A stretch of 64,000 bases of DNA from contig CAVVXN010000003.1 of assembly GCA_963752285.1 (NCBI GenBank), forward strand, positions 32,001 to 96,000. The letters are read 5' to 3'. The notes beneath the pieces are model-generated. The model ran no database searches and was not told the DNA's origin. It was given only the letters and a program-made list of their open reading frames with translations. The position numbers and the translations under genes are program-made. Each line of letters starts with the position of its first letter. Within the stretch, counting starts at the first letter, position 1. This stretch comes from an uncultured Planctomycetota bacterium. Lineage in GTDB: Bacteria; Planctomycetota; PLA2; JAEUHO01. Of this stretch, positions 1,643 through 11,320 are shown one piece after another.

Positions 1643-4523
1643 TCAGTCGAGCGACCGCTCCGTCCACCAGTCCGGCTCGGCGAAGCGGACATCGGGGTCG
1701 GCGAGCGCGTCCCGCGCGACCTCGATCGGCGAGACCGTCGGGTCGGTCGGTCGGGCGAGGATCCAGCCCGCGCCGAGCGACGACGTCCGCTCCACCTCGA
1801 GCCCGCGACGCGCGGTCCACGCGCGCACGGCCTCGGGCGGGAGACGGGGGTCGAGGCGGAGGAGCACCCGGCCGGTGAGGGCCCGCGGTCGCCCGCGTCC
1901 TCGGGGTCCGTCCCGGAACACGCCGCCGGCCCGGGCCCCCGCGGCCCGGGCGGCGCGGACGAGCGCGCGCGCGTCGGCGCCCGCGCGGACCCGCCAGAGG
2001 CGGAACCCGGTCCCGCGGAGCGCGGCGCCGTCCACCTCGGGCCGCCCGGCCAGGCGCGAGGACGTGTCCGATCGGGTCCACTCGGCAACGAGCGCGTCGT
2101 CGCGGCGCGCGCGGTCCCAGCGGCAGCCGTTCCACCACGCGACCTCGTCGGGACCGGTCGTGGGCGCGGGTGGGCGCGCCGGCTCGGCGGCGCGCTTCGC
2201 GACGAGCGCCGCGGACGTCGCCGGCGCCTCGCCCTCGAGCGCCAGCGTCCAGCTCGACCACCACGAGCCGTACTCGCCCTCCCCGTCCCGGACGGTCAGG
2301 GTCCAGCCGCCGTCCGGTTCCTCGTCGAGGTCGCGCCACGTGACCAGCGGGATCCCGTCGAGCGAGCTGTCGTTCGTGTTCGTGAGACGAAGCGGCACGG
2401 CGAACACGCTCGTGGTTCCGGCGGGACTCGTGAGAGTGATCTCGAGGTCCGTCGCGGCCGGGTGGTCGATGAAGAGCGTGACGGTCGCGCGGTACACCTT
2501 CGTCAGGGAGGTGTCGCTCGCGACCGTGATCGTGCTGGAGGCGCCGTCCGGGTCCCCCGCCAGGACCGCGGCGTCCACGCTGGCGGTGCTCGACGTGGAC
2601 GCGAGGCCCGGCCGCGGCGTCCACGTCCGCGCGAGGTCCACGGCCGCCGCGGCGTCCACCACGCCGAACCCGTAGTGGGGGTTCACCCAGTGCCCGCCGG
2701 CGTTCAGCGTCCACTCGGAGTCGTTCGGGTCGTTCTTCCGTGCCGTCTCCGCGAGCACGAGCGGCACCTCCCACCAGCGCAGCGTCGGCCGGGCCTCGAG
2801 GACGAGCGCCACGACGCCCGTGACGAGCGGTGTGGCCGACGAGGTGCCCCCGAACGCGTTCGTGTAGCTGCTCGAGGAGTATCCCAGCGAGCCCGTGCGG
2901 TCGGTGGTCGTGATCCCGGGATGGCCCCCGGAGTCGTTGGACGGCGCGGCGACGAGGATGCACGGCCCTTCCTCTGAGTAGGACGTGTAGTGCCCGTCGG
3001 CGTTCACCGCGGCGATCACGTTCACGCCGCGGATGCCGTTCGTGCCGTCGAGGCCCGCGTAGGCCGGCGCCCAGTTGCCCGCCGCCTTCAGGTAGACGCT
3101 CCCGCGGCCTCCGCGGCCCGCGGACAGGCCCGTGGCGACGGCGGCGTGGAACGAGTACGGCGCCTCGGAGTAGCCGTAGAGGACGCCGCCGTAGATGGGG
3201 GGGGTGCCCCACGAGTTGTTGTACGCGTGCGTGTTCGCGGCGTTTCGGGCGAGGGCGTCCGCGATGTCGGCGTCCGTGGCGCCCGACGTGAGCACCGCGA
3301 AACCCTCGAGGTGGGCCTTCGGCGCGGCGCCGGTGATGCCGATGCCGTTCCCGCCCACGCCGGCGGCGACCCCGGCGACGGAGGTGCCGTGCTCGTTCCC
3401 GGTCGGGTCGTCGTCGTCGCCGCCGTAGTCCCAGCTCTCGCCCGAGGCCACGTTGTCCTGGAGGTCCTCGTGGGCGATCTCGAGCCCGTCGTCCACGATC
3501 CCGAGAAGCACACCGTCGCCCGTGTAGCCGAGGCCCCACGCTCCGACGACGTCCGCGTCCTCGCCGGCCGTGCTGCCCGAGACCTGCGCGGTGTTCTCGA
3601 GGTGCCACTGGCTCGAGAAGAGGGGGTCGTCGGGCGTGAACGTGGTGTACGTCCAGGCCGAGGCCATAGCCGGACGTACCGCCCCACGTGACGACGCCGA
3701 CGTCCACCGTACCCGGCGGGCCCTCCGCCGACAGACACGTGAGCGTCGCGTCGTCCTGGACCTCGACCGCCGTCGCCGCCGCGCTCCCGAAGTCCACCTC
3801 GACGACGCCCGCGTCGAACCCGCTGCCGGTCAGCGTGACGAGCGTGTAGCCGCCCGCCGGCCCGTGGTCGCGGTCGATACTCGCGAGCGTCGGCGCCGAC
3901 ACCGCGGCCCAGGCCGAGGCGAGCGACCCCGTGCCGTTCGCGTTCGTGACGACGAGGTCGTACGCGCCGAGTGCGGGCTGGGCGGGCACCCGGCAGACGA
4001 GACGCCGATCGTCCGCGACCGCCACGTCCGTCGTAGGGAGGCCGCCCACCGTGACGGTGGGCGGGCCCGCGTCGTTCGCGAGGAAGCCCGTCCCGAGCAG
4101 GGTGACGACCTGACCGCCTCCGAGCGGACCGCGCGCGGGGGTCACGACCGCCACGAGGGGCGCGGGGTGGTACGTGAACGCGCCCGCGAGCGTCGCGCTC
4201 CCGTGTCCCGTCGTGACGTCCAGGTCCGCCGGTCCGACCAGTCCCGGAGGCGTGACGCACGTGACCGTCGTTCCGTCCACCAGCACGACGTTCGTCGCCT
4301 CGGCGCCGTCGAAGAGGAGGCGGGGGAGCGTGCCGTCGGCGTTCCCGAGCCGGGTCCCCGTCACCGTCACCGAGGTGCCGCCGGCCGCCGCGCCCCCCGG
4401 CGGGTCCACCGCCGCGAGCGTCGGAGGCTCCGACGGGGTCGGCGCGGCGCTGCCGCCTCCGCCGCCGCAGCCCGCCGCGACGGTCAGCGCGAGGACGAGC
4501 GCGACGGAGCTGGATCGACGCAT
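1643..4523 (-). CDS. Lipoprotein with three IPT/TIG domains, kexin/furin-like S8 peptidase, P domain and C-terminal extra domain; interrupted by a 1-nt frameshift near 3670
   Basis: ATG 4523 with GAGGG RBS, signal MRRSSSVALVLALTVAAGC, three IPT repeats; in another frame (1643-3667) DPLFSSQWHL, IVDDG, HGTSVAG, AAGN, GTSSATP, YGFGVVDA. Total span 2881 nt = 3n+1. Confidence 0.8.
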
Positions 4524-4658
4524 GGGCGCACCCTCGACGAACGCGATGCCGATCATACGGTTCCCGACCCGCGCCGCGCGACCCGTCGCCGGAAGCGCCG
4601 GGGGCGCGGGGGCGCCTCCGCCTATACTGCGCGCGCCGCGGCGGCGGCGGGAGGGCGC

Positions 4659-5486
4659 ATGTCGGACGGGCTCAGGTCGGTTCCGACCCTGCTCGCGGCG
4701 GGGTACCCCACCGGCCTCATCACGATGGCGGTGCTCCTCGTCTTCTTCTTCGTGTCCCTGCTCCTCTACATCCGCTGGGCCCGGAAGGGCCGGGATCTCT
4801 ACGTCCGTCCGATCGGCGGCCTCGCCGCGATGAACGAGGCCATCGGCCGCGCGACCGAGATGGGGCGGCCGATCCTCTACGTCCCCGGCATCGCGGACGT
4901 GGACGACATCCAGACGATCGCCTCGATGGTGATCCTGAGCGAGGTCGCGAAGCTCGCGGCCCAGCACGACACCCGGACGATCGTGCCCACGAACAAGGCG
5001 CTCGTGTATCCGCTGGCGGAGGAGACGGTCCGGAACGCGTACCTCCACGCCGGACGTCCGGAGGCCTTCCAGCGCGACGACGTGCGGTTCCTCTCCGAGG
5101 ACCAGTTCGCCTTCACGGCCGGAACGACGGGCATCATGCTCCGTGAGCGGCCCGCCACGAACATCTACATGGGCGCGTTCTGGGCCGAGTCCCTCTTCCT
5201 CGCCGAGACGGGCTTCGCCGCCGGGGCGATCCAGATCGCGGGCACCGCGAACGTGTCGCAGCTCCCCTTCTTCGTGGCGGCGTGCGACTACACCCTGATC
5301 GGCGAGGAACTGTACGCGGCGAGCGCGTACCTCTCGCGCGAGCCGATGCTCCTGGGCTCGCTCAAGGCGTCCGACCTCTCGAAGCTCGTGTTCGGGGCCA
5401 TCATCCTCTTCGGGCTCCTCGCCGCGAACTTCCCGGACGAGTTCGGCTGGTTCACGAAGCTCTTCGACTTCACGTGGCCCCAGTGA
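4659..5486 (+). CDS. DUF6754-like membrane protein (TM, alpha/beta domain, TM)
   Basis: GGAGGG RBS then ATG 4659; EAIGRATEMGRP, QLPFFVAACDYTLIGEELYAASAYLSREP. Confidence 0.8.
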   Translation: MSDGLRSVPTLLAAGYPTGLITMAVLLVFFFVSLLLYIRWARKGRDLYVRPIGGLAAMNEAIGRATEMGRPILYVPGIADVDDIQTIASMVILSEVAKLAAQHDTRTIVPTNKALVYPLAEETVRNAYLHAGRPEAFQRDDVRFLSEDQFAFTAGTTGIMLRERPATNIYMGAFWAESLFLAETGFAAGAIQIAGTANVSQLPFFVAACDYTLIGEELYAASAYLSREPMLLGSLKASDLSKLVFGAIILFGLLAANFPDEFGWFTKLFDFTWPQ

Positions 5487-5507
5487 CGGGAGGCGGCACG
5501 GCGCTCC

Positions 5508-6161
5508 ATGTTCCGTAGGACCATCCCGCTCCTGCTCACGGCCATCGCCGGCGTGTTCATGATCATCTCGTTCTTCGTCCCCCCCGGCTGGGACGTGGCC
5601 GAGCTGGCCACCCGGATGAAGGACTGGGGCATCGTCATCGCCGCCTTCGCCGCGGTGCTCGGGGCCGGGAACATCCTCCGGGTCTCGTACCACAAGGCCC
5701 GTCGCGGTGAGGACCGGCCCTACAAGATCGTCCTGATCGTCTGCTTCGTGGTGACGACGGCCCTGGGACTGGTCGGCGGCATCCAGGACAAGACCGTGGA
5801 CACGTGGTTCGTGAACGCCGGCGCGAAGAACCCCTTCGACTGGGTCTACCAGAACATCCAGCTCCCCCTCGGGGCGACCATGTTCTCGCTCCTCGTGTTC
5901 TTCATCACCTCCGCCGCGTACCGCGCGTTCCGAATGCGCTCGCTCGAGGCGGGTCTCCTGCTGGTCGCGGCCGTGATCGTGATGCTCGGACAGCTCCCCT
6001 GGTCCAGCCAGATCGGCATGGACTGGCTGATGGGCTGGATCATGGGCGTCCCCAACGCCGCGGCGAAGCGGGCCATCCTCATGGGCGCGGCGATGGGCAT
6101 CGCGTCGATGTCGCTCCGCGTGATCCTCGGCATCGAGCGGTCCTACCTGGGGAGCGACTGA
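5508..6161 (+). CDS. Uncharacterised integral membrane protein (~6 TM)
   Basis: Hydrophobic 217-aa ORF; TMFSLLVFFITSAAYRAFR, LRVILGIERSYLG. Confidence 0.85.
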   Translation: MFRRTIPLLLTAIAGVFMIISFFVPPGWDVAELATRMKDWGIVIAAFAAVLGAGNILRVSYHKARRGEDRPYKIVLIVCFVVTTALGLVGGIQDKTVDTWFVNAGAKNPFDWVYQNIQLPLGATMFSLLVFFITSAAYRAFRMRSLEAGLLLVAAVIVMLGQLPWSSQIGMDWLMGWIMGVPNAAAKRAILMGAAMGIASMSLRVILGIERSYLGSD

Positions 6162-6164
6162 GCC

Positions 6165-6995
6165 ATGGCCGTCGGCAACATACTCTCGCGGATCGACCGC
6201 CGGCTCCTCTTCCTCTCGATGGCGATCGCGGTGATCGTCCCCTTCGTGCTGAAGGCGAAGCCCTCCGTCCAGCCGATGCAGTGGTCGCGCGACCTCTACG
6301 ACGCGGTCGAGGCCGTGAAGCCCGGTGGGGTCGTCCTCGTCTCCTGCGACTACGACCCCGGCTCCGAGGCCGAGCTGTACCCCATGACCGTCGCGATCTT
6401 CGAGCACCTGGCCCGGAAGGACGTGCGCGTCGTGATCACCGAGCTCTGGCCCGCGGCGGGGCCGCTGGTGAAGAGCGCGCTCGAGGAGACCTTCTACAAG
6501 CACGGGAAGAAGTACGGCATCGACTTCGTGGACCTCGGCTACAAGACCGGCGGGCAGATCCTCATCTCGAAGACCGTGGACTCGATCGCCCAGGCGTTCC
6601 CCGACGACGTGAACCAAACGCCCGTGTCGGAGATCCCCGCCATGCGCGGCGTGCGGAAGGCCGCGGACATCGACTTCTTCGTCAGCATCTCGGCGGGCAC
6701 ACCCGGCACGAAGGAGTGGGTGCAGCAGTGCCAGAGCCGGGTGGGGAAGCCCATGGGCTGCGGCGTCACCGCGGTCCAGGCGCCGGACCTCTTCCCCTAC
6801 ATCCTGAACCACCAGCTGATCGGGATCCTCGGAGGGCTCCGCGGCGCGGCCGACTACGAGGCGCTGGTCGGAAAGCCGGGGCGCGGCATCACGGGCATGG
6901 GGCCCCAGACGTACGGCCACCTCCTGATCGTCCTATTCATCGTCCTGGGGAACCTGGGCTTCCTGCTCTCCCGCGACGCGCCGAGGGCCTCGTGA
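6165..6995 (+). CDS. Uncharacterised membrane-anchored protein (TM, alpha/beta domain, TM)
   Basis: DYDPGSEAELYPM, GIDFVDLGY, GILGGLRGAADYE, GHLLIVLFIVLGN; 3 nt after previous stop. Confidence 0.85.
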   Translation: MAVGNILSRIDRRLLFLSMAIAVIVPFVLKAKPSVQPMQWSRDLYDAVEAVKPGGVVLVSCDYDPGSEAELYPMTVAIFEHLARKDVRVVITELWPAAGPLVKSALEETFYKHGKKYGIDFVDLGYKTGGQILISKTVDSIAQAFPDDVNQTPVSEIPAMRGVRKAADIDFFVSISAGTPGTKEWVQQCQSRVGKPMGCGVTAVQAPDLFPYILNHQLIGILGGLRGAADYEALVGKPGRGITGMGPQTYGHLLIVLFIVLGNLGFLLSRDAPRAS

Positions 6996-7759
6996 TGTCG
7001 CGCGGCAACCTCCTCCTCTTCGGCGGCACGCTCCTGGCGCTCCTCGGCACCGGGTTCCTGCTCGGCGACTTCGCCTCCTGGACGCTCTTCGGGACGCTGC
7101 TCGCCGCGTTCCTGACCCTGGCCGTGTTCTCGTTCCTCGTGCGAGACAACCCCCTCTACAAGCTGGCGGAGCACATCTTCATCGGGGTGGCGACGGGATA
7201 CGTGCTGGCGTACTCGTTCTGGAGCGTCTTCGTCCCCAACGTGTGGCGGCAGTTCCAGTCGCTCCGCCTGGGCACGGCGGCCCCCGAGGACCGGAAGTGG
7301 ATCTGGCTCCTCGTCATCCCCGTGCTCCTGGGCCTGCTCTTCTTCGCCCGGTTCGTACCCAAGTACGCCTGGCTCTCGCGCTGGTCGATCGCGTTCCTGA
7401 TCGGGGCGTACGCGGGCGTGAACTGCACCGGGTACTTCCAGACCGACCTGATCAACCAGGCCTCCTCCACCTTCCACGACTTCGGTCGCCTCCATCCGGG
7501 CCCGAACCACGGCTGGGTGGACATCCTGACCGTCAACGTCCCGATCCTCGTGGGGGTGCTCAGCACACTGACCTACTTCTTCTTCTCGAAGCCCCATCGC
7601 GGGGTGGTGGGCGTCTCGGCGCGGCTCGGCGTGTTCTTCCTGATGGTCGCCTTCGGCGCGTCGTTCGGCTACACGGTCATGGGACGCATCTCGCTCTTCA
7701 TCGGGCGCGTGCAGTTCCTGATCCAGGACTGGTTGGCGCCTCTGCACATCCTCGGCTGA
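6995..7759 (+). CDS. Uncharacterised integral membrane protein
   Basis: TGATG overlap with previous gene; FSFLVRDNPLYKLAEHIFIG, FLMVAFGASFGYTVMGRISL. Confidence 0.85.
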   Translation: MSRGNLLLFGGTLLALLGTGFLLGDFASWTLFGTLLAAFLTLAVFSFLVRDNPLYKLAEHIFIGVATGYVLAYSFWSVFVPNVWRQFQSLRLGTAAPEDRKWIWLLVIPVLLGLLFFARFVPKYAWLSRWSIAFLIGAYAGVNCTGYFQTDLINQASSTFHDFGRLHPGPNHGWVDILTVNVPILVGVLSTLTYFFFSKPHRGVVGVSARLGVFFLMVAFGASFGYTVMGRISLFIGRVQFLIQDWLAPLHILG

Positions 7760-7910
7760 CGCGCGCGGCGCGGTCCATGGTCGAGCCGGATCGCGCCGAT
7801 CGGAAAGAACGAAGATTCGCGTGCTCATCGTTTGCACGCTCAGTCGGAGTTCCCTGCAACTTCGTTGCGACACGATGCACGATGTCGCGAGGGATTGCTG
7901 GAGACCTCCG

Positions 7911-10472
7911 ATGACGCGCTTCACGAGGTTCACGCGGCTCCTCACCCTCGCGTCCGTAGCGTTGACCACCACGTCGACGCTCGTGCTGGCCGGTTGCGGC
8001 AACGGCTCGACGTCGGACGCGGTGACGCTTCCGCCCTCGACGATGGTGAAGGTGCATCAGTTCGCGTACGACCAGGCGACGAAGACCTATCTCGTGATGG
8101 GCGAGACCGTGACGCAGGACGCCGTCGATCGCGACCTCGTCGGCTCTCTCTGCGTTCACTGCCACTCGGACCAGGTCAGCCAGCTGCGCGACAGCGCGCA
8201 CTTCAAGCTCGCCGCGAAGACGAAGCGGGTGCTGTTCCCCGGCGGCGGCGCCCACGGCATGCTCGATCGCGCGTGCGGCCTCCCCGCCACGACCGGCCTC
8301 ACGAACTACAACTCGAACGTCGGTCTGAACGAATGCGCGAAGTGCCACGTGGACCGCTACATGCCCGCGATGGAGGGCTTCTTCGCGAGCATGTTCGGCC
8401 CGATGGGCGTGGCCGATCCGTCGGGCGAGGCGAGGCGCCTGGTGGACGCCGGACTCGACTGCATGGTCTGCCACGCCGCGAAGTACAAGTCGCACCCGAC
8501 CTCCGGCGTGCTGGCCGACGTCGCCGGCACCGCGACGGCGGACGCCACCTCCCCGACCCGCATCGGCGCGGCGCGTGACGCGCGCGACGACGGCGACTTC
8601 AACCACGACGGGAAGCCCGACCTGGTGATCGACGTGAACGGCGACGGGACGCCCGACGTGCCCCTCATGATGGACCGCGACGGCGACGGGACGCCCGAGA
8701 CGCCCTGGCCCACCGTGGCGCAGGACCGGAGCGCCGAGGCGATCCTCAGCATGGGGCCGACCTCCGAGGAGGCGTGCCTCAGGTGCCACGAGCACGCGCG
8801 CACGGGCTACAAGCGCGGCACCCTCTTCCTCGAGGGTCACGACGTCCACGCGAGCGCCACGAGCGGCCCGTTCCAGGGCGCCGACAACCGCTGCACGGTC
8901 TGCCACACCGCCGCCTGGCACAAGTTCGTCCGCGGCCACGAGGTGGGCGGCGACCTGGCCGCCGCGGACTACCCGCCGCCGGCTCCCGGGACGGCGCCGA
9001 ACCCCGCCGACCCCACCGAGCTCACCTGCCAGAAGTGTCACGATCCCGCGACCCTTCCGGAGTGGATCCACACCGAGCGGCACCTCGCCGTGATGGCCTG
9101 CGAGACGTGCCACATCCCGTACTCGAGCGGCATCACGTACTCGCTCTTCGGCCACGGGGGTCACGTCGCGTTCGCGCGCACCGACGCGGGGACGGACACG
9201 AAGCTGGTGGTGGCCGACATGTACGCCGCGGACGGCCGCGCCGACGTGGACGCCGACTGGGAGGCGTTCAAGAGCCGGCCGATCCTGACGTGGTTCGACG
9301 GCGGGACCTCGTTCCTCGCGCAGTCGCTCTCCGTGCGCGGGATGCCCAACGCGCGCATCACGCCCTTCAAGCCCATGGCCAACGGCATGGTCTTCGACGC
9401 GAGGTTCTTCCAGGGCGCGACCCTGAAGAACGACGCGGGCGCGGACTACAACGCGTACTCCATGTACCGGTTCTTCGCGAACGGCATGAACGCCGAGGCT
9501 TTCCAGGCGCTCGGCATGCTCGAGATGAGCCCCGCCGCGGTCCGGCAGGTGACGCTCAACAGCTTCTTCGACCCGGACCCCACGGTCCAGGCGATGGCGC
9601 TGATGCAGATCTTCCCGAACCTCGTGTACTTCGACAAGGCAGACTACGGCTACGAGCACTACCTCACGAAGACCGGATCGCCCTACGACCAGAACCACGA
9701 CGGGGTGATCGACGCCGGGCAGCCCTTCCTCTTCGACATGCTGCACGCGTCGAACGCCGGTCTCGCCCAGTTCCAGGCCTTCAACGGCCCGATGGGCTTC
9801 CCGAAGGCCTACTCGTGGTACCCGACCTTCTCGGGCGTCCAGGACGTGATCAGCATGAAGCTCCCCGACGGGAGCCTCATCAAGATGTTCCTCGAGATGC
9901 AGGCCACAAAGCTCCCGCCGGACCAGCAGGCCGCGTACCTCGCGGCGGTCGCGAGCTACCCCGCCTACTCGAACGTCACGCTCGGGGGGCACGGCGTGCT
10001 CCCGAAGGAGGCGGCGCTCGGGAACAACTGCATGGACTGCCACGGCGCGGGCGGCGTGCTGTCGCACCCGGTCCCGGTCACCCGGAAGGTCCGGACCGAC
10101 ATGGGGATGCTCGGCCAGCTCGACCTCCCGCTCTACCGGTGGCGGTACTACCAGGTGCGGGCCCTCACGGACCTCGGCCTCTCGACCAGCTCGGAGGAGG
10201 TGTTGGCCGGCGCGAAGAACGTGGATGTCGCCGGGAATACGACCTACCTCCGGGACAGCGCGACCGACTTCGTGCTGAACTGGCTCGTGCCGAACGCGCC
10301 GGGCGGCTACCGCGCGGCCGACGACCCGACGGCCCTCCAGGGCACGGGCCTCACGGCCGACGACCTGACCTGGCACGGTGGGGCCTGGATGCCGGTCCTC
10401 GAGCCCGTCGTGGACATGCGCCCCAACTACGAGGTCTTGGGGTACGACAGGTCGGAGATCCTCTGGAACTAG
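7911..10472 (+). CDS. Octaheme c-type cytochrome lipoprotein, OTR (octaheme tetrathionate reductase)-like
   Basis: Lipobox LAGC; eight CxxCH (CVHCH, CAKCH, CMVCH, CLRCH, CTVCH, CQKCH, CETCH, CMDCH); OTR-like context (DVH, ACETCHIP, ITPFK, HGVLPKEAAL before the isolated eighth heme). Confidence 0.85.
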   Translation: MTRFTRFTRLLTLASVALTTTSTLVLAGCGNGSTSDAVTLPPSTMVKVHQFAYDQATKTYLVMGETVTQDAVDRDLVGSLCVHCHSDQVSQLRDSAHFKLAAKTKRVLFPGGGAHGMLDRACGLPATTGLTNYNSNVGLNECAKCHVDRYMPAMEGFFASMFGPMGVADPSGEARRLVDAGLDCMVCHAAKYKSHPTSGVLADVAGTATADATSPTRIGAARDARDDGDFNHDGKPDLVIDVNGDGTPDVPLMMDRDGDGTPETPWPTVAQDRSAEAILSMGPTSEEACLRCHEHARTGYKRGTLFLEGHDVHASATSGPFQGADNRCTVCHTAAWHKFVRGHEVGGDLAAADYPPPAPGTAPNPADPTELTCQKCHDPATLPEWIHTERHLAVMACETCHIPYSSGITYSLFGHGGHVAFARTDAGTDTKLVVADMYAADGRADVDADWEAFKSRPILTWFDGGTSFLAQSLSVRGMPNARITPFKPMANGMVFDARFFQGATLKNDAGADYNAYSMYRFFANGMNAEAFQALGMLEMSPAAVRQVTLNSFFDPDPTVQAMALMQIFPNLVYFDKADYGYEHYLTKTGSPYDQNHDGVIDAGQPFLFDMLHASNAGLAQFQAFNGPMGFPKAYSWYPTFSGVQDVISMKLPDGSLIKMFLEMQATKLPPDQQAAYLAAVASYPAYSNVTLGGHGVLPKEAALGNNCMDCHGAGGVLSHPVPVTRKVRTDMGMLGQLDLPLYRWRYYQVRALTDLGLSTSSEEVLAGAKNVDVAGNTTYLRDSATDFVLNWLVPNAPGGYRAADDPTALQGTGLTADDLTWHGGAWMPVLEPVVDMRPNYEVLGYDRSEILWN

Positions 10473-10633: not shown

Positions 10634-11167
10634 GCTCGCGGGGCCGCCTTTGGCGGCGCCGCGTCGCGGGCGGTGTGGGGCGGGCTCGCGGGGCCGCCTT
10701 TGGCGGCGCCGCGTCGCGGGCGGTGTGGGGCGGGCTCGCGGGGCCGCCTTTGGCGGCGCCGCGTCGCGGGGGTGTGGGGCGGGCTCGCGGGGCCGCCTTT
10801 GGCGGCGCCGCGTCGCGGGGGTGTGGGGCGGGCTCGCGGGGCCGCCTTCGGCGGCGCCGCGTCGCGGGGGTGTGGGGCGGGCTCGCGGGGCCGCCTTTGG
10901 CGGCGCCGCGTCGCGGGCGGTGTGGGGCGGGCTCGCGGGGCCGCCTTTGGCGGCGCCGCGTCGCGGGCGGTGTGGGGCGGGCTCGCGGGGCCGCCTTTGG
11001 CGGCGCCGCGTCGCGGGGGTGTGGGGCGGGCTTGTGGGGCCGCCTTTGGCGGCGCCGCGTCGCGGGCGGTGTGGGGCGGGCTTGTGGGGCCGCCTTTGGC
11101 GGCGCCGCGTCGCGGGGGTGTGGGGCGGGCTTGTGGGGCCGCCTTTGGCGGCGCCGCGTCGCGGGGG
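10634..11167. repeat. Tandem repeat, 11 units of 49-50 bp (last one partial)
   Basis: Unit GCTCGCGGGGCCGCCTTTGGCGGCGCCGCGTCGCGGG(C)GGTGTGGGGCGG starting at 10634, 10684, 10734, 10783, 10832, 10881, 10931, 10981, 11030, 11080, 11129. Confidence 0.95.
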
Positions 11168-11320
11168 AGGGGCGGACTCGCGGGGAGACCGTCTGGTTAC
11201 CGGGCGGGGGCGGGGGCGGGGGGTGGGGGGCCGCTCGGCGGGGGGCGCTGCCGGCGGATCCTCGACGGATGCGGGGGGGTTGGCCTATACATGACGGCCG
11301 ATCCCTGGAGGAGGGACCCC

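Follow-up and report, generated by a model that had tools for sequence, protein, structure and literature searches.

Among the systems described so far, the accessory proteins of the B12-dependent glutamate and ornithine mutases (GlmL/MutL) are actin-fold (ASKHA) ATPases, reactivases of the GlmL type being paired with a Rossmann-like client domain, and in the PilM-PilN-PilO and GspL-GspM assemblies an actin-fold cytoplasmic protein is combined with bitopic membrane proteins whose soluble domains lie on the other side of the membrane. To our knowledge, no ASKHA ATPase powers a transporter or an envelope machine. The Pfam family DUF6754 (PF20539) is catalogued only, without an assigned function, and for DUF6754, PF20539 and the MutL/GlmL family PF13941 no paper was found in the literature searched. 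The subject of this report is a four-gene cassette, G1 to G4, at positions 4659-7759 (+ strand) of a 64,000-nucleotide stretch (the window) of the genome of an uncultured Planctomycetota bacterium (GenBank assembly GCA_963752285.1, contig CAVVXN010000003.1). The four products are a widespread, unstudied four-protein membrane unit, which at many related loci, and on another contig of the same genome, is encoded together with an ATPase of the GlmL family, and which in the phylum rarely occurs in a genome that lacks one; we give about even odds to an ATPase-linked machine for transport or force transmission, with G1-G4 as its membrane part. As a system it is far from every characterised kind, the find in the window being one further, satellite, copy. 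The genes of the cassette are:

4659..5486 (+): G1, a DUF6754 protein of 275 amino acids (aa); evidence from Pfam PF20539, an AlphaFold2 (AF2) model, the bias of lysine plus arginine (K+R) and the exported N-terminal domains of relatives

5508..6161 (+): G2, a polytopic membrane protein of 217 aa with about six predicted transmembrane (TM) helices; evidence from its conserved adjacency to G1 and the alternation of K+R

6165..6995 (+): G3, 276 aa, with a TM helix, a six-stranded Rossmann-like domain, very probably extracytoplasmic, and a second TM helix; evidence from an AF2 model, the K+R bias and variants with a zinc ribbon or a CARDB domain

6995..7759 (+): G4, a polytopic membrane protein of 254 aa; evidence from its conserved position after G3 and from G3-G4 fusions

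The four open reading frames (ORFs) are co-directional in a window of GC content 0.67-0.77, and their coordinates give spacings of 21, 3 and -1 nt, the last being a 1-nt overlap of the G4 start with the G3 stop, exactly the tight coupling described in an earlier reading of this DNA from its letters alone (hereafter the original prediction), all of whose quoted sequence strings are also present. G1, there called DUF6754-like, is a full-length member of the family (E 3.5e-108; 361 bits versus a gathering cut-off of 27; profile positions 11-248 of 257). The family covers G1 and not G2-G4, for which no Pfam or NCBIfam family was matched, a member-by-member Pfam scan of the G2 alignment yielding scattered weak hydrophobic matches only. 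A scan of G1-G4 for Walker A, CxxCH and CxxC motifs was empty, so the four proteins do lack ATPase, haem and iron-sulfur (Fe-S) motifs of their own, as had been said. Furthermore, none of them matched an ABC family of Pfam or NCBIfam, which argues against a P-loop (ABC/ECF) primary transporter, nor was any Nqr/Rnf family matched among them. PADLOC-DB 2.0 (E<=0.01) returned no family for G1-G4 or for the operon partners introduced below (c5, the ATPase, c7 and c8), which argues against a known anti-phage defence system, and profile searches of the PDB with G1-G4 and c5 gave nothing under E 0.02.

Relatives of G1 were sought in one genome per species; at least 545 stretches encoding them were found, and 79 loci were retained. 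A DUF6754 four-gene cassette is here defined operationally as homologues of G1-G4 encoded together, a definition that the window fits. In tblastn searches with the four window proteins all four genes were found at 76 of the 79 related loci, the three misses being loci truncated by contig ends, and the expectation that the genes would co-occur across phyla is therefore borne out. At these loci the cassette genes mostly overlap or abut, and the loci belong to over ten phyla, the groups represented including Eisenbacteria, Zixibacteria, Fermentibacteria, Cloacimonadota, WOR-3/Stahlbacteria, Calditrichota, Planctomycetota, Acidobacteriota, Ignavibacteria, Sumerlaeota, Armatimonadota and Vulcanimicrobiota; relatives of G3 number 3626 cluster representatives (50% identity) at E<=0.001. 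Invariant columns number 43 in G1 (alignment of 33 sequences), 13 in G2, 12 in G3 and nine in G4, and the window proteins keep every one. In G3 they include an RR pair in the N-terminus and a His and an Asn in the C-terminal TM helix, the tail being basic; in the polytopic subunits G2 and G4, invariant Arg, His and Asn lie in or near membrane helices. The conservation of the cluster is far beyond chance, and from it G1-G4 would form one conserved inner-membrane complex. Tandem copies (two or three) of the whole cassette are found in Zixibacteria, Ignavibacteria and phylum-mates of the window's organism (loci L051-L053, L060, L062, L049, L022, L034, L066, L070, L074 and L091-L093).

The genes upstream of the cassette were identified by clustering all ORFs of the 79 loci, and a wider operon emerged with the order c8-c7-ATPase-c5-G1-G2-G3-G4. 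The ATPase cluster is present at 33 of these loci, c5 at 28, c7 at 23 and c8 at 17, many loci being cut upstream. The additional products, all encoded upstream of the cassette, are:

c8: a two-helix protein, roughly 150 aa long, from ORF clustering

c7: a membrane hairpin protein, roughly 135 aa long, from ORF clustering

ATPase: about 610 aa, with a match to Pfam MutL/GlmL (PF13941) over its whole length at E 1.3e-126

c5: a soluble protein of 377 aa with weak barrel-sandwich-hybrid and KOW-like signals

The end-to-end match to PF13941 is shared with the GlmL/MutL accessory proteins, as are the ASKHA phosphate and adenosine motifs, which are visible in the sequence of the cassette ATPase. However, the latter is about 150 aa longer, is often fused to c5, adjoins membrane genes instead of a mutase, and scores below the NCBIfam cut-offs: the ATPase of one locus (L004) reaches 230.5 against 475 required for NF040745, 216.5 against 600 for NF040744 and 170.7 against 204 for TIGR01319, and a fused ATPase-c5 form (P0275) scores similarly, again below the cut-offs. 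Since all three cut-offs are missed, the cassette ATPase is a separate branch of the GlmL actin-fold family, its nearest named relatives being GlmL and the ornithine-degradation Or-4 protein, both accessory to amino-acid mutases; in existing annotation it is labelled 'glutamate mutase L' (NCBI) or 'TIGR01319 family' (JGI). A further difference from the mutase systems is that no B12-binding family matched G1. A B12-binding domain in G1, suggested by a motif likeness, would be speculative, with no Pfam match and no B12 domain in the top 50 structural rows.

That ATPase and c5 make up one functional unit follows from the longer relatives of c5, proteins of about 990-1005 aa, 104 of 105 of which carry PF13941. 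c5 itself stays under the cut-offs of RnfC_N (21.3 versus 25.6) and NqrA_N (17.3 versus 25), which argues against membership of Na+-NQR or Rnf complexes. In the ESM Atlas, G3 and c5 retrieved only clusters without a name or with weak Biotin_lipoyl/RnfC_N labels, carried by 11-19% of members. The idea that c5 is a carrier with a lipoyl or biotin group was examined and discarded, as Biotin_lipoyl matched with 26.7 bits across 24 residues only and the hairpin region has no invariant Lys. An apparent c5-G1 'fusion' (P0304) has an internal signal peptide, a spurious N-terminus and a single member; read-through in gene calling is its probable origin, and it is left out of the evidence.

The genome of the window itself encodes the complete system. 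The window cassette has no ATPase, c5, c7 or c8 gene beside it, while another contig (contig C5, not to be confused with protein c5) holds the full eight-gene operon, with PF13941 and c5 genes (C5:1934.2-1937.2 kb) upstream of a second cassette; the window copy is, therefore, regarded as a satellite cassette. The two copies are well diverged (50, 37, 35 and 44% identity for G1 to G4), and the C5 copy of G1 scores 349.7 bits against PF20539. In a tree of G1 (a quick IQ-TREE run, with the careful search unfinished and SH-aLRT support only), the window copy and the C5 copy fall in different parts, both on long branches (1.03 and 1.39), but the supports, 87 and 85, are too low for a verdict on separate acquisition. 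Most of the multi-cassette genomes in the sample have fewer ATPase genes than cassettes, and at some loci two or three tandem cassettes adjoin a single ATPase gene.

Across 201 genomes of the phylum, DUF6754 and the ATPase are both present in 51, DUF6754 only in two, the ATPase over cut-off only in six and neither in 142 (totals of 53 for DUF6754 and 57 for PF13941 over cut-off), counts that come from related genomes and hence are not independent. The association holds also where the loci are hundreds of kb apart (genomes G032, G132 and G043). The argument that the cassette has no ATPase and hence is a secondary transporter is thus not supported, the cassette being linked by operon structure and co-occurrence to a GlmL-like ATPase encoded elsewhere in the genome; a seemingly 'ATPase-free' cassette is misleading in isolation, because its likely partner is on another contig. 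The distribution is patchy, since in the window's own family and order the system is found in none of the eight genomes sampled. The presence of several diverged cassettes per genome, with the window cassette encoded away from the ATPase, recalls the modular importers of the ECF type. In contrast to these, the cassette comes without a P-loop ATPase and without homology to EcfT or S components, and its energiser would be an actin-fold ATPase.

How the cassette may sit in the membrane can be read from charge distribution and from the domains that relatives have acquired, and the two agree. The AF2 models of G1 and G3 (pLDDT 90.6 and 94.3, respectively) have an identical element order, i.e. TM helix, helix, six beta-alpha units and TM helix, as expected from the TM-alpha/beta-TM layout first proposed for both. 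In 85 sequences of G1 the 15 residues ahead of TM1 contain 1.40 K+R on average, as against 4.54 behind TM1; in 200 sequences of G3 the averages are 3.29 ahead of TM1 and 3.32 for the last eight residues, with 1.60 and 1.60 on the domain side. A signal peptide and exported sequence stand at the start of G1 relatives at five loci, and the best 120 longer forms of G1 include 35 with PQQ-like propellers and five with fn3 domains, always N-terminal. In one form of G3 a double zinc ribbon makes up the N-terminus and no helix precedes TM1, and another (P0084) has a CARDB domain inserted into its soluble domain. On this twofold evidence the soluble domain of G1 is very probably cytoplasmic and that of G3 extracytoplasmic, which upholds the opposite sides assigned to them from the basic clusters; the short N-terminus of G1 would then lie outside and that of G3 in the cytoplasm.

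The seven loops of G2 alternate in K+R (1.87/0.44/3.14/0.75/2.78/0.57/1.15), a pattern that suggests six helices with both termini cytoplasmic, and longer G2 relatives contain FG-GAP repeats in 11 of 24 cases; a cultured strain of Planctomycetaceae is among the sources of G2 relatives. For G4, whose helix number is uncertain, guidance comes from two natural fusions with G3 (P0070 and P0104), in which the linker that joins the inward tail of G3 to the core of G4 contains one additional TM helix; it matches the additional N-terminal TM helix that precedes the family core in the window G4, and so points to an N-terminus of G4 inside. Taken together, the sequences indicate that the outer faces of the cassette proteins repeatedly bear binding-type domains, namely propellers and Fn3 on G1, FG-GAP on G2 and CARDB on G3.

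G3 has, besides, an insertion hot spot near residue 110, where inserts of about 55 to 560 aa are found in relatives P0036, P0044, P0065, P0071, P0077, P0084, P0086, P0092, P0094, P0119, P0130 and P0153. The insert of P0092 has HEAT repeats, and P0037 is a duplicated G3.

Because only the ATPase resembles a characterised protein, the role of a machine is argued from anatomy. The cytoplasmic part of the system would consist of the GlmL-like actin-fold ATPase and the barrel-sandwich/KOW-like c5, with the two small membrane proteins c7 and c8 in addition, and the window cassette would be a second, diverged satellite unit, most likely sharing the ATPase encoded on contig C5. The highly conserved cytoplasmic domain of G1 may be the docking site of the ATPase-c5 unit, a Rossmann-like client comparable to those of GlmL-type reactivases; the mean column identity of 50% that G1 retains across phyla is what would be expected of a shared docking surface. 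The TM helices of G1, G2 and G4 could then relay nucleotide-driven movement to the outward Rossmann-like domain of G3, and the output would be either substrate import or mechanical work exerted on whatever is bound at the outer side. Different cassettes would act as exchangeable specificity modules on one energiser, as in ECF transporters. The more specific proposal, a primary-active membrane machine of a new class, driven by an actin-fold ATPase in place of a P-loop or rotary one and with interchangeable four-subunit cassettes bearing variable ectodomains on a shared energiser, is put forward tentatively, as a possibility to which we give clearly less than even weight. It may be a case of an ASKHA ATPase driving a transporter or an envelope machine. 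The family is common in uncultured groups whose physiology comes from annotation alone, and an assigned function would alter the metabolic reconstructions of Zixibacteria, Fermentibacteria, Planctomycetota, Acidobacteriota and others.

Several points weigh against an ATPase-linked machine. The binding of G1-G4 to one another is suggested by their synteny and by the G3-G4 fusions only, and it is by inference that the ATPase is placed on G1 and that the machine is given something to move. G2-G4, c5, c7 and c8 have no match in Pfam, NCBIfam, PADLOC or PDB sequences and no homology to a transporter or machine, and the structural matches of the Rossmann-like domains are generic and flat. The genes beyond the eight-gene set are heterogeneous and provide no clue to a substrate, nor do riboswitches, since neither in the window nor at any of the 83 loci scanned does one lie directly before a cassette. 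Two genomes of the phylum have DUF6754 without the ATPase (90-95% complete and fragmented, with 410 and 660 contigs), and six have the ATPase only (five of them 72-89% complete; four are from one family and 72-79% complete). Finally, the ATPase gene on contig C5 (L085, 8374-10225, - strand) is split over three frames in this assembly, the breaks lying near 9339 and near 9812-9836. A single contig from a publicly available soil run, 151 nt in length (X1; depth 2.8, three other differences), has one extra base behind 9337, which suggests that the break near 9339 is an assembly error, the break at 9812-9836 being outside the coverage of this short-read contig; should the breaks prove genuine, this genome may hold a system in decay.

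The alternative that survives best, unlikely as we hold it to be, is a receptor or scaffold complex, in which outward domains bind surface or extracellular ligands and the actin-fold protein is a cytoplasmic switch or filament tied to regulators of polarity or motility. It would account for the binding-type ectodomains fused to G1, G2 and G3, and it has precedent in the docking of ASKHA proteins on bitopic membrane proteins (PilM-PilN, GspL). However, no sequence or family match connects the cassette to PilM-PilN-PilO or GspL-GspM, and the cassette differs from these in having G1 and G3 anchored by helices at both ends and in comprising two extra polytopic subunits. Also, G1-G3 of the window have no ectodomains, and the core is conserved without them. 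A string of genes that includes one for a DUF4388 (PATAN) protein follows the cassette in loci of the WOR-3 type, which would fit such regulators, but the link is found at three of the 79 loci only. Moreover, a conduit is a better fit for the two conserved polytopic subunits, given the invariant Arg, His and Asn within their membrane helices or close by. The gene string itself is conserved at L025, L046 and L072 and six small genes long, the product of the first being the one with DUF4388.

If the system is a transport machine, its cargo could be amino acids or peptides, a specific version of the transport reading that we consider rather improbable. The closest named relatives of the ATPase, GlmL and Or-4, serve amino-acid mutases, and genes for GcvP and an LplA-type ligase stand beside the operon in Eisenbacteria and Fermentibacteria and at one locus of Planctomycetota. 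Against this, the ATPase scores below the three NCBIfam cut-offs, the flanking genes are lineage-specific, and no lysine riboswitch was found at the gathering threshold in the window or in the 83 loci.

In detail, the gene for the glycine-cleavage subunit GcvP lies directly upstream of c8 at loci among L001-L009, L011, L015, L016, L020 and L073, genes for the LplA-type ligase and for a TonB-dependent receptor with CarboxypepD_reg lie downstream of G4 in Eisenbacteria and Fermentibacteria, and the LplA-type gene is upstream of the operon in one Planctomycetota locus. The sole riboswitch in the 83 loci scanned is a c-di-GMP-I element of a phylum-mate (L086 4173-4283, + strand; 63.6 bits versus a gathering threshold of 59), 3.4 kb upstream of the DUF6754 gene and separated from it by an ORF of no known kind and a radical-SAM gene. 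A match to Rfam PYLIS_3 in a Zixibacteria-like locus (L040 2356-2453, - strand; 45 bits versus 38) is unrelated to the cassette and probably reflects an mttB-like coding sequence.

The original prediction had seen in G1-G4 an ATPase-independent secondary transporter, an antiparallel pseudo-symmetric heterotetramer of two inverted-topology paralogue pairs (G1/G3 and G2/G4), and this we now regard as very unlikely. Its case was the absence of an ATPase gene next to the window cassette together with the likeness of G1 and G3, which agree in length, element order and class of fold. In structure searches (VIA), the best match of G1 is sirtuin 4 (Z 10.5, rmsd 3.6, 143 residues aligned), in a generic Rossmann-like list that is flat, from Z 10.5 to 8.9 across 50 rows; that of G3 is 1kjn_B (Z 10.4, rmsd 3.3, 139 aligned), again in a flat list, and 14 of the top 50 matches are common to the two, 1kjn, sirtuins, transhydrogenase dIII and RCK domains among them. 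Foldseek against the PDB gave none at E<=0.001 for G1 and, for G3, generic SDR/Rossmann matches only (TM 0.25-0.40). The C-terminal motifs quoted for the two proteins do sit on equivalent elements of the AF2 models (helix 5, strand 6, helix 6). Furthermore, one architecture in opposite orientations, encoded close together, is also what is found in pairs of the SMR/EmrE type, in NqrD/NqrE and in RnfA/RnfE.

All sequence tests for paralogy were, however, negative. BLASTP gave nothing significant (E 1.4 for G1 versus G3 and 1.2 for G2 versus G4). The hhalign probability was 1.3% for G1/G3 and 1.9% for G2/G4 with alignments of 33-35 rows; with 77-200 rows it was 5.3% for G1/G3, where one TM helix of G1 was paired with the last helix of G3 only, 0.3% for their soluble domains alone and 0.9% for G2/G4. 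When the C-terminal motif regions of G1 and G3 were compared as profiles the P value was 0.057, and six of 15 non-equivalent windows of G3 scored better against the same segment of G1, so that the supposed likeness of the motifs is at chance level. The similarity claimed for the Gly/Ala-rich final helices of G2 and G4 fared no better, these being left unaligned by both BLASTP and hhalign. The architectural likeness of G1 and G3 is real, while their distant common ancestry is neither shown nor excluded.

Inverted topology, in turn, is indicated for the first pair only: G1 and G3 are very probably oppositely oriented, whereas the N-termini of G2 and G4 both appear to be cytoplasmic, and these two proteins are, therefore, not shown to be inverted. 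In inverted-repeat carriers the repeats are membrane helices, unlike G1 and G3, about two thirds of which are soluble domains; the same sets them apart from SMR/EmrE-type pairs, NqrD/NqrE and RnfA/RnfE, the likeness being found in soluble Rossmann-like domains and homology remaining undetected. The strong linkage to the ATPase, in operons and across genomes, speaks further against such a transporter and favours, once more, an ATPase-linked machine.

After strand 1 the consensus reads 'PGIxDxDDIQT' in G1 and 'SFDYDPxSxPE' in G3; neither has there the glycine-rich loop (GxGxxG) of NAD(P)/FAD-binding Rossmann enzymes, and two GxGxxG-like strings of G3 lie elsewhere than at strand 1 and are not conserved. 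A membrane-bound enzyme or redox module, in which these domains bind a nucleotide cofactor and work with the multihaem cytochrome of 883 aa encoded after G4 on the same strand, would have in its favour that sirtuins, transhydrogenase dIII and short-chain dehydrogenases are among the best fold matches, and it is scarcely probable given the missing dinucleotide motif, the single Cys of G1 and lack of haem or Fe-S motifs, the unusual placement that a periplasm-facing NAD(P) domain would have, and the recurrence of the cytochrome neighbour at none of the 79 loci.

The surroundings of the cassette in the window include one further feature upstream of it:

4524..4658: intergenic stretch between a divergent lipoprotein gene and G1, with GGAGGG at 4650-4655, read directly from the sequence

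The GGAGGG lies 4 nt upstream of the G1 ATG, and the divergent gene (- strand; ATG as complement of 4521-4523) begins 135 nt from G1. A consensus scan of 4524-4658 found no sigma-70-like site, and Rfam had zero matches in window 4100-4800 at E<=1. The lipoprotein gene (about 3700-4523, -), whose translation contains repeated IPT/TIG-like segments as judged by eye, is itself upstream of a gene for an S8 subtilase with a proprotein-convertase P domain (1643-3667, -), divergent from the cassette. On the other side, the cytochrome gene occupies 7821-10472 (+), 61 nt past G4; eight CxxCH motifs are counted by eye in its product, which gives weak MtrC/MtrF-like and cytochrome c7/c3 Pfam matches. At 10634-11185 lies a GC-rich tandem array in which a 49-nt unit recurs 11.2 times with 97% matches.

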